Shown: positions 33,376 through 34,727 of the stretch, one piece after another
Numbering within the stretch: position 1 is the stretch's first letter
Layout: every line of letters begins with the position of its first letter
Virus genome (UHGV): UHGV-0098755
DNA length: 64,000 nucleotides
Direction: 5' to 3' (one strand)
Origin: a virus
Program-made: the position numbers and the translations under genes
The notes under the pieces: generated by a model
Database searches by the model: none
What the model saw: only the letters and a program-made list of their open reading frames with translations
Told to the model about the DNA's origin: nothing

Positions 33376-33954
33376 TTAATTACCACGGGCTGCATTAGCA
33401 ACGGCATAAGCGTACTGAACATTAGCGTCCTTAAACGTACCTTTAGAGGTATCTATTTCTGCCTTAAAGCCGCCTTTAGCCATAACATCGGCAAATTCTT
33501 TACGGAAAGCCATTGCATCAAGACCTTTCCATGATGATTTGTGCTTAGCGAATTCAAGACCAGCGTAGTTGACAGCCTTAGCTAATTTATTATCAATGAC
33601 CCATTTACCGGCTTTAGGCACAAACTTCGGGCCTTTTTGTTTAGAGAACAGTTTTAAATTCCAGCGACGAAGGTCACTGTCGGCTTTAACAAAAGCTGCG
33701 TCTAAGTTACTAGCAACAACATCTTCAATATGAGCAAATTTAAGTCCGTCAACTTCAATATTTAGATCGTTACGCCAGCGAAGTCCTTCCCAAGCGAAGG
33801 CTTTAAAGTCGGAAGCCTTTGTAGCTAAGTACCGTTCAATAGGAGCTGTTTTAGGGTCAAAGCCGTTTCCCGATCGGTAGGTCCACTCATCTTTATTAAT
33901 GCCTTTGGCCTTTACTATAGAAGCTTCGGCAATAAATTCTTGATAGGTTTTCAT
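33376..33954 (-). CDS. ipIII: capsid-targeted internal protein (IPIII-like)
   Basis: 192 aa; N-terminal capsid-targeting sequence MKTYQEFIAEA with gp21-type I-x-E cleavage site; size as T4 IPIII; early promoter upstream. Confidence 0.7.
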   Translation of the reverse strand: MKTYQEFIAEASIVKAKGINKDEWTYRSGNGFDPKTAPIERYLATKASDFKAFAWEGLRWRNDLNIEVDGLKFAHIEDVVASNLDAAFVKADSDLRRWNLKLFSKQKGPKFVPKAGKWVIDNKLAKAVNYAGLEFAKHKSSWKGLDAMAFRKEFADVMAKGGFKAEIDTSKGTFKDANVQYAYAVANAARGN

Positions 33955-33982
33955 GTGTTTCCTTGTTTGTTTTGATAGAGTA

Positions 33983-34012
33983 ATTATACCATATTAATAC
34001 TTAAGCGTAAAC
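33983..34012 (-). promoter_or_regulatory. T4 early-type promoter upstream of the IPIII-like gene
   Basis: GTTTAC, 18 nt spacer, TGGTATAATTAC. Confidence 0.5.
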
Positions 34013-34015
34013 CGT

Positions 34016-34276
34016 TTAAGCTTTACCGCCAGAAATAATTCCGAAGTTGTTAAAATCATATCCAATATCGTCAACATCTACTTTAGGACTTGCTACAACA
34101 TAAGCAATTTCACTACGTTTTGCACAGGTGTTGATTTCTTTACCATCGCCACCTAAGAAAGAATACCCATTACGTTTTAATGAGCCAAAGTCTTCCGCAT
34201 CACCAATGAAAGCTTTAACTTTAAATTTAGAACCTTTGGCATCTGCTTCAACGATAAATTCTTGATACATTTTCAT
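34016..34276 (-). CDS. capsid-targeted internal protein (IP family, 86 aa)
   Basis: N-terminus MKMYQEFIVEA is a variant capsid-targeting sequence. Confidence 0.6.
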   Translation of the reverse strand: MKMYQEFIVEADAKGSKFKVKAFIGDAEDFGSLKRNGYSFLGGDGKEINTCAKRSEIAYVVASPKVDVDDIGYDFNNFGIISGGKA

Positions 34277-34282
34277 TTTTCC

Positions 34283-34480
34283 TTAGTAAATTGATTTACC
34301 AAAGTATTTGTACCAAGTCGGACGTTGATCAATTTTTTCATCTAAGCGTGCTTGATTTATCGCAATGGACGCTTCGGACGGGTCATAATTTCCTCCAAGT
34401 AGTTGATGAATATATAGTATCAAAACCCTTGGAGGAAGTAAACAACTATTTTTCTGAAGCGCCTGAAATATATTTTTCAA
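34283..34480 (-). pseudogene. denV: denV (endonuclease V) 3' remnant
   Basis: Only the last ~32 codons ([32 protein letters not shown]) match recalled T4 EndoV C-terminus; upstream codons unrelated; an early promoter lies inside the ORF. Confidence 0.6.
34412..34443 (-). promoter_or_regulatory. T4 early-type promoter inside the denV remnant
   Basis: GTTTACT ... TGATACTATATAT. Confidence 0.45.
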
Positions 34481-34727
34481 GACGTTGTTTCATCAGCGAG
34501 CCGTTCTTAGCGATTTCTTCCGGTTTATCGCACATACGCAACAAGGCTTCAAGCTTAACGATATCACTGGTGCGCTCAAATTTGCGAGTATCTATCTTAC
34601 TAGCAAGTTCAGAAATACGTGCTAATAGACTTTCAGCTTCAACCAAAGCTGCACCTAGCTTAGTTGCAAATGTGTCAGTAGCTTCGTTAAGAATAGATTC
34701 TGATAAAAATTCACTATATGTTTTCAT
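34446..34727 (-). CDS. capsid-targeted internal-protein-like gene (93 aa)
   Basis: ATG overlaps the e stop (ATGA); N-terminus [11 protein letters not shown] is capsid-targeting-like with an L-x-E site; sits where the 5' part of denV would be. Confidence 0.5.

Follow-up and report, generated by a model that had tools for sequence, protein, structure and literature searches.

Which proteins does a T4-like phage encode for its head beside its lysozyme gene, and are any of them new? The question is raised by UHGV virus genome UHGV-0098755, a stretch of 64,000 nucleotides (hereafter the window), in which three small open reading frames (ORFs) at 33376-34727 begin with the capsid-targeting sequence (CTS) of T4 internal proteins. 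An earlier note on this DNA had described them as flanking a denV remnant and had suggested that two of them, of 86 and 93 amino acids (ip86 and ip93 below), may be undescribed injected effectors. Our analysis identifies the region as the polymorphic ipII/ipIII internal-protein locus of a Tequatrovirus, with the three cassettes ip93, ip86 and ipIII. As T-even internal-protein loci go it is standard and already annotated; its configuration resembles that of RB69, and the gene loss beside it is of a known type. The earlier interpretation is partly supported, being right in kind and wrong about novelty.

Three ORFs open with a T4-type capsid-targeting sequence

The minus strand carries every feature between 33376 and 35246, including the three ORFs, and each of these has the T4-type CTS and gp21-type processing site attributed to it in the earlier note. 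The genes of the locus, in the direction of transcription, are as follows.

34724-35212, minus strand: gene e (T4 lysozyme), Pfam Phage_lysozyme, E = 1.9e-13
34446-34727, minus strand: ip93, 93-residue CTS protein of the RB69ORF127c type and Ip5 paralogue, phrog_3499, E = 1.2e-46
34283-34386, minus strand: denV pseudogene by comparison with phage Lutter, with start codon, junction of the deletion (within 34380-34390) and the final 32 codons in another frame
34016-34276, minus strand: ip86, 86-residue CTS protein of the RB69ORF125c type, starting MKMYQEFIVEA
33376-33954, minus strand: ipIII orthologue, 192 residues, starting MKTYQEFIAEA, phrog_5341, E = 8.8e-118

Here ip93 is counted from the ATG at 34727; in the ORF list it begins at a TTG five codons upstream.

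The first 10 residues of IPIII are enough for packaging, with positions 4 and 7 mattering for targeting and positions 8 and 10 for processing by the prohead protease gp21 (PMC9026906). All three ORFs have Tyr4, Phe7 and [I/L]8-x-Glu10, that is, aromatic residues at positions 4 and 7 of an opening resembling MKTYQEFIAEA. Their gp21 sites, of the form [L/I]-x-E, are IAE10/A in IPIII, IVE10/A in ip86 and LSE10/S plus LNE15/A in ip93 (the slash marks the cut). Within the six-frame translation of the window, the pattern MK.[YF].[ED]F[ILVM].E has five matches, each opening a small minus-strand ORF; three lie at the e-to-ipIII locus and two at 41977-42619. The same pattern had no match in 200 dinucleotide-preserving shuffles, which confirms that the CTS observation is far beyond chance.

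The two additional matches fall at the ipI locus. One is a 90-residue CTS protein (42347-42619, minus strand) in the cluster of Ip9 from phage K3, and the other a 102-residue CTS protein (41977-42285, minus strand) named Ip7 in UniRef. Counting these together with ip93, ip86 and IPIII, the phage thus encodes five CTS proteins and neither IPI nor IPII. Phage RB32 and the 1994 RB15 record Z35082.1 carry ip7, ip9 and ip5 at the ipI locus.

The proposal that the 86- and 93-residue proteins are not IPII held up. BLASTP against T4 IPII aligns just the 11 CTS residues, and once the CTS is removed nothing significant is found between ip86 or ip93 and T4 IPII or IPI. T4 IPII belongs to phrog_7857, a family that neither protein matches.

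Gene order matches RB69 with ipIII added

The window is a Tequatrovirus sequence. Its internal-protein region matches 841 phage records, of which the best, with 98% identity, are Tequatrovirus isolates (235Ecol030PP and G8 among them). The earlier note had left gene order relative to T4 unverified; on comparison, the order differs from that of T4 and matches that of RB69 plus ipIII. Read in the direction of transcription, the window has e-ip93-denV remnant-ip86-ipIII-vs.8-like, whereas T4 has e-ipIII-ipII-denV-vs.8 and RB69 has e-ORF127c-denV-ORF125c-ORF124c-ORF123c-vs.8. Phage Lutter shows the arrangement of the window with denV intact, and phage G8 shows it with the identical denV deletion. 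By sequence comparison, then, the window locus is the left half of the RB69 locus joined to ipIII.

Synteny with T4, RB69, Lutter and G8 places the three ORFs in the polymorphic internal-protein locus that runs from e to vs.8, one of two such loci considered here; the other runs from 57B to the tRNA genes. Repoila and colleagues (1994, cited in PMC12373910) reportedly found two loci, including the e-to-vs.8 locus, to be highly polymorphic among T-even phages. Phage T6 (AP018814) has no annotated ip gene between e and regB. Over stretch positions 990-2007 of that record regB directly follows e and the whole ip/denV/vs block is missing, an arrangement that agrees with the report of T2 and T6 lacking Ip2 and Ip3.

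ip93 is a relative of Ip5

The ATG of ip93 overlaps the TGA stop of e (ATGA), as read directly from the sequence, and this overlap indicates that ip93 is translationally coupled to e. The protein is 100% identical to RB69ORF127c over residues 13-93 and 92.5% identical overall. It also aligns with Ip5 of wV7, RB68, T2, T6 and RB70 at 47-51% identity over 84 residues (E = 1e-15 to 2e-17), a profile search with ip93 returns the Ip5 proteins of T2 and RB70, and PHROG 3499 is common to ip93 and Ip5. This significant full-length similarity to named Ip5 proteins assigns ip93, at the level of sequence, to the Ip5 family. The name Ip5 is said to come from Repoila and colleagues in 1994.

Processing of ip93 may differ from that of the other two proteins of the locus. 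Within the Ip5 family E10 is often missing (the Ip5 of T2 and T6 reads MKTFKEFATKTTITE/S) and [I/L]-x-E15 is nearly invariant; the second site of ip93 is L13-N14-E15/A, and T4 IPI has a long propeptide ending in ITE/A that resembles it. Given this conservation and the T4 IPI site, ip93 is expected to be trimmed at E15, possibly following a first cut at E10. The predicted mature protein has a mass of 9.19 kDa and an isoelectric point (pI) of 6.3 if cut at E10, or 8.63 kDa and pI 8.1 if cut at E15. An AlphaFold model of ip93 has three helices, with a predicted local distance difference test score (pLDDT) of 76. It matched no structure in the PDB (best E = 3.3), and in BFVD it matched its own family alone, including a protein of phage VR26 that is annotated as an ip5 homologue (putative internal head protein). 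The exact 93-residue sequence occurs on 541 contigs, and about 239 phage records have a copy of ip93 that is at least 80% identical. A literature search for the label ORF127c gave a single text match, RB43ORF127c, which is unrelated.

ip86 is a conserved cassette, interrupted in several phages

The second cassette, ip86, is 93% identical to RB69ORF125c. Cut at IVE10/A, the predicted mature protein has 76 residues, a mass of 8.04 kDa and a pI of 6.4. Word-indexed protein searches with ip86 and ip93 return few relatives, and an exhaustive profile search with ip86 adds five more distant CTS-bearing proteins of 29-38% identity that have the motifs [KR]NGY.F and D[FL]..F[GD] in common. E10 is invariant across these divergent relatives, which argues that the processing site is under selection.

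The exact 86-residue protein is in GenBank from phage BF15, and 217 phage records carry ip86 at 80% identity or above. In Lutter (stretch 2341-2596) the gene is split by a frameshift at a T-run, where GGGTATTCTTTC becomes GGGTATTTTTTTC, and in UFV13, JM10 and Pu-Krd-SF5 it matches in two pieces; ip86 thus appears to have been pseudogenised repeatedly.

Two identities were considered for ip86. That of a diverged IPII is rejected, its similarity to T4 IPII being limited to the CTS. The link to Ip7 is a common PHROG, with insignificant pairwise similarity. The ip86 profile also weakly matches two repeat proteins, one FG-GAP_2 and one WG_beta_rep, in six stretches each; in one example, KVFIGETDEDGSPLKGKYGFVNKEGKEI resembles KAFIGDAEDFGSLKRNGYSFLGGDGKEI. 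These matches may hint at a beta-hairpin repeat-like unit or may be chance, and we do not take them as homology. One 90%-identity cluster that contains the 86-residue protein also contains DenV proteins of 137 residues. It looks like a clustering artefact, probably stemming from neighbouring or fused gene calls, and its names are therefore not trustworthy for ip86.

IPIII is orthologous to the T4 protein

The window IPIII is 95% identical to T4 IPIII over the full length, with nine substitutions and an identical CTS. Cut at MKTYQEFIAE/A, the predicted mature protein has 182 residues, a mass of 20.3 kDa and a pI of 9.65. T4 IPIII has been published as an inhibitor of a type IV restriction system in E. 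coli ECOR17, the two-gene GmrS1/GmrSD2 (PMC12373910), and it acts in the cytoplasm even without its CTS (PMC9391042). Because of this 95% orthology the window IPIII should block ECOR17-type GmrSD, and, as judged from its sequence, inhibition of the GmrS1/GmrSD2-type system is close to certain.

ip86 and ip93 are already catalogued

The suggestion that the 86- and 93-residue proteins are undescribed did not survive database comparison: ip93 is of the RB69ORF127c type and falls in the Ip5 PHROG, ip86 is of the RB69ORF125c type, and both have exact copies in GenBank. Identical or nearly identical proteins occur in over 200 sequenced phages of Tequatrovirus and Mosigvirus, and RefSeq labels both as 'internal head protein'. 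Given these copies and labels, ip86 and ip93 count as already catalogued. They are not identical to T2 or T6 internal proteins (such identity is what the earlier note had named as speaking against its reading); the Ip5 proteins of T2 and T6 are about 48% identical to ip93.

Our literature search found no experimental study of either family, and the bNACHT11 and Durham-collection papers contain nothing on internal proteins. Pfam and NCBIfam gave no match for any of the three proteins, and a PDB sequence search returned chance-level matches alone.

A denV deletion lies between ip93 and ip86

The denV remnant flanked by CTS genes is present as described, between ip93 and ip86. A stretch of 310 bp that Lutter retains has been lost between two direct repeats of AATTATG, a pattern that marks deletion by slippage or microhomology. 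The surviving ATG (34386-34384) opens a 9-codon ORF, MTRPKRPLR-stop, and the last 32 denV codons, which extend to 34283, match the C-terminus of phrog_1183, endonuclease V. The deletion is out of frame and removes DenV residues 2 to about 105, including the catalytic N-terminus, leaving no intact frame; judged by this loss, denV is non-functional. Compared with T4 endonuclease V, the window copy keeps the promoter, the start codon and the last 32 codons at the RB69-type position of denV, and differs in lacking those residues.

We find the identical junction in 14 other distinct phages (G8, G4498, BF15, Phaginator, F27, 235Ecol030PP, JM17, FL18, B1.1, Shinka, JM10, FL12, FL23 and FL44), which marks the deletion as a circulating allele and not an assembly error. 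By analogy with T4 v mutants, loss of denV should make the phage sensitive to ultraviolet light, and the common deletion predicts a natural lineage with this sensitivity.

Late transcription is presumed to start upstream of e

Four groups of expression signals surround the genes.

35239-35246 and 35226-35233, minus strand: two T4 late-promoter motifs TATAAATA, just upstream of e
34414-34443, minus strand: denV promoter of early type (GTTTAC ... TACTAT) between the arms of the inverted repeat TTCCTCCAAG / CTTGGAGGAA, by comparison with Lutter
33983-34011, minus strand: sigma-70/T4 early-type promoter upstream of ipIII (TTTACG, 17-nt spacer, TATAAT with TG), 10/12 positions matching
33356-33373, minus strand: hairpin with a T-run behind it, downstream of ipIII, where the transcription unit probably ends

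The pair of late motifs upstream of e is the sole one near the locus, with none closer to the ip genes. In T4, too, this pair lies upstream of e, and the stretch from vs.3 to e.4, which includes e, ipIII, ipII and denV, contains no further copy. By analogy with T4, late transcripts that span e and all three ip genes presumably start at the e promoters, and late synthesis would proceed by read-through from e to the terminator at 33356-33373.

The early-type promoters are distributed differently. The denV promoter coincides in position with the promoter annotated in Lutter, the sequence being identical save for one T/C difference, and T4 has the same promoter design upstream of denV. Since the 310-bp deletion removed denV, ip86 now lies directly behind this early promoter. 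A conserved early-promoter block precedes ipIII, Ip9 and Ip7 in the window, but not ip93 or ip86.

A probable route for injected inhibitors and the alternatives to it

The overall best explanation for these genes, and one we regard as probable, is that they encode inhibitors of host nucleases attacking modified DNA, which are packaged, trimmed by gp21 and injected. Beyond the sequence features, the steps of this mechanism are drawn from established T4 biology. Transcription would be late, from the e promoters. Late in infection the CTS would bind the proteins to the prohead scaffolding core, and gp21 would remove the propeptide after Glu10, or perhaps after Glu15 in ip93. Some hundreds of copies would stay in the head and be injected with the DNA. 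In the new host the internal proteins would act before expression of any phage gene, each specifically and stoichiometrically inhibiting a host nuclease (a type IV enzyme of the GmrSD family or of McrBC type) directed at glucosyl-hydroxymethylcytosine DNA.

The route itself (core binding, gp21 trimming and injection) is established for T4 IPI-III, at about 360-370 copies per head (PMC9026906). An injected anti-restriction role, which the earlier note had proposed, fits current literature on both GmrSD and McrBC. T4 Ip1, Ip2 and Ip3 each block a different GmrSD enzyme with no cross-protection (PMC12373910), and Bas37_0260, a CTS protein of phage Bas37, blocks McrBC (preprint 10.1101/2025.11.20.689424). 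By analogy, ip86 and ip93 are very likely packaged and injected; that they target type IV restriction in particular has, in our estimate, a little less than an even chance.

Several observations weigh against this explanation. Seven genes, ip4-10, gave no reproducible inhibition of additional GmrSD systems (PMC12373910), so type IV restriction may not be the target of every internal protein; as far as can be told, that set did not include the ip86 or ip93 families. Mature ip86 and ip93 have no detectable sequence similarity to Ip1, Ip2 or Ip3, and our literature search found no proteomic report of either protein in virions. With no separate late promoter for ip86 or ip93, late expression would depend on read-through from e. 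There is no informative fold match: the AlphaFold model of ip86 (pLDDT 39) is unreliable, its alignment having just 6 sequences, and no fold was inferred from it, and the ip93 model matches its own family alone. Frameshifts interrupt ip86 in several phages, so some settings evidently do not require it. ORF127c in the RB69 record (AY303349, stretch 2617-2737 against window 34640-34760) has a single-nucleotide deletion and, 22 nt from it, a single-nucleotide insertion in the CTS-coding part, a -1/+1 frameshift pair that scrambles residues 5-12 (MKTYMNFYQNLS) and leaves residues 13-93 identical to ip93. Either RB69 has truly lost this CTS or the 2003 record is in error.

This RB69 record favours a reading in which the CTS of ip86 and/or ip93 is a vestige of ip-cassette recombination and the proteins are unpackaged, ordinary early cytoplasmic products. 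The lack of late promoters of their own, and the place of ip86 behind an early promoter, would agree with it. However, in the window both genes retain all the CTS determinants that experiments have defined, relatives with as little as 29% identity still have E10 and F7, and T4 ipII and ipIII also lack a TATAAATA of their own and yet are packaged. We regard this reading as highly improbable. Somewhat better placed, and still improbable, is the older view of internal proteins, under which ip86 and ip93 would be packaged with no specific host target, as core or scaffold accessories or as DNA-associated filler. T4 IPIII mutants do assemble heads more slowly and give a smaller burst (PMC9026906), and the frequent pseudogenisation of ip86 points the same way. 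Against this, mature ip86 and ip93 are near neutral (pI 6.3-8.1), whereas IPIII and Ip7 of the window are basic (both pI 9.65); all three T4 internal proteins now have specific targets; and the cassette-like turnover at the locus is more in keeping with an arms race than with a structural role.

A more serious contender accepts packaging and injection and places the targets of ip86 and ip93 outside type IV enzymes, in another first-response defence or in host reprogramming of the kind performed by Alt. The negative result for ip4-10 and the dissimilarity of the mature proteins to Ip1-3 both suit it, and the ADP-ribosyltransferase Alt shows that CTS-type packaging extends beyond anti-restriction proteins (PMC9026906). 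However, every small CTS protein with a known target (Ip1, Ip2, Ip3 and Bas37_0260) blocks type IV restriction, and proteins of 8-9 kDa in which no enzymatic domain is detected look more like stoichiometric binders than enzymes. We consider this possibility unlikely, though worth keeping in view. With a similarly tentative standing, ip86 and/or ip93 could be injected specifically to inhibit a defence against which no phage antagonist is known. Candidate targets would then include one of the five GmrSD clusters that restrict T-even phages and are unblocked by Ip1-10, or a non-type-IV defence, and selection by the defence in question would account for the spread of the RB69-type cassette pair into more than 200 genomes of Tequatrovirus and Mosigvirus.

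Comparison with known internal proteins

Set beside known systems, the three proteins agree in some features and differ in others. T4 IPII (Ip2, inhibitor of ECOR21 GmrSD/BrxU) and T4 IPI* (inhibitor of CT596 GmrSD) resemble ip86 and ip93 in their CTS, their small size and their place in an internal-protein locus, and presumably use the same delivery route; they differ in having no similarity to ip86 or ip93 beyond the CTS and in belonging to different PHROGs. T4 IPIII lies in the same locus as the window protein, between e and vs.8, but directly after e, whereas the window ipIII is the last of three cassettes. The RB69 locus (Mosigvirus) agrees with the window in its order e-ORF127c-denV-ORF125c; it differs in its intact denV and in two other CTS ORFs (124c and 123c) where the window has ipIII.

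Ip5, which is annotated also in RB32, RB15 and wV7 and is named by UniRef in RB70 and T2, has a helical mature domain and the conserved [I/L]-x-E15 site, as does ip93. It differs in lying at the ipI locus between 57B and the tRNA genes, whereas ip93 adjoins e; ip93 also has 6-8 extra C-terminal residues and the additional E10 site. Ip5 was among the ip4-10 products tested against GmrSD variants, with no confirmed target (PMC12373910).

Injected internal proteins are a phage's first line against host nucleases because they act before any phage gene is expressed, and they help set the host range of T4-like phages, which makes them relevant to phage therapy. Since 2025 each of the three internal proteins of T4 has had a target assigned to it, whereas most others have none. 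The window adds nothing new in kind, and its value is a list of five CTS candidates (Ip9, Ip7, ip93, ip86 and IPIII) for anti-defence screening. Two of these, ip86 and ip93, represent widespread families for which we found in the literature no tests against any defence.

The right-hand flank

Between the ipIII terminator and the vs.8-like ORF lies a GC-rich block of about 100 nt (33247-33345) that matches the 5' end of T4 vs.8 (T4 64849-64938) and has a 40-nt core conserved as far as RB69 and Klebsiella phages. As an RNA gene it was rejected, with no Rfam match and a weak fold signal (z-score -1.8); its role may be that of a conserved anchor at the right-hand end of the variable locus. The adjoining vs.8-like ORF (32659-33246, minus strand) encodes 195 residues, starts later than T4 vs.8 and contains a Walker A motif (GGRQSGKST). 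Its Pfam matches to AAA and terminase-N are weak and below threshold, and it belongs to phrog_1488, a family of unknown function, with E = 3e-79.

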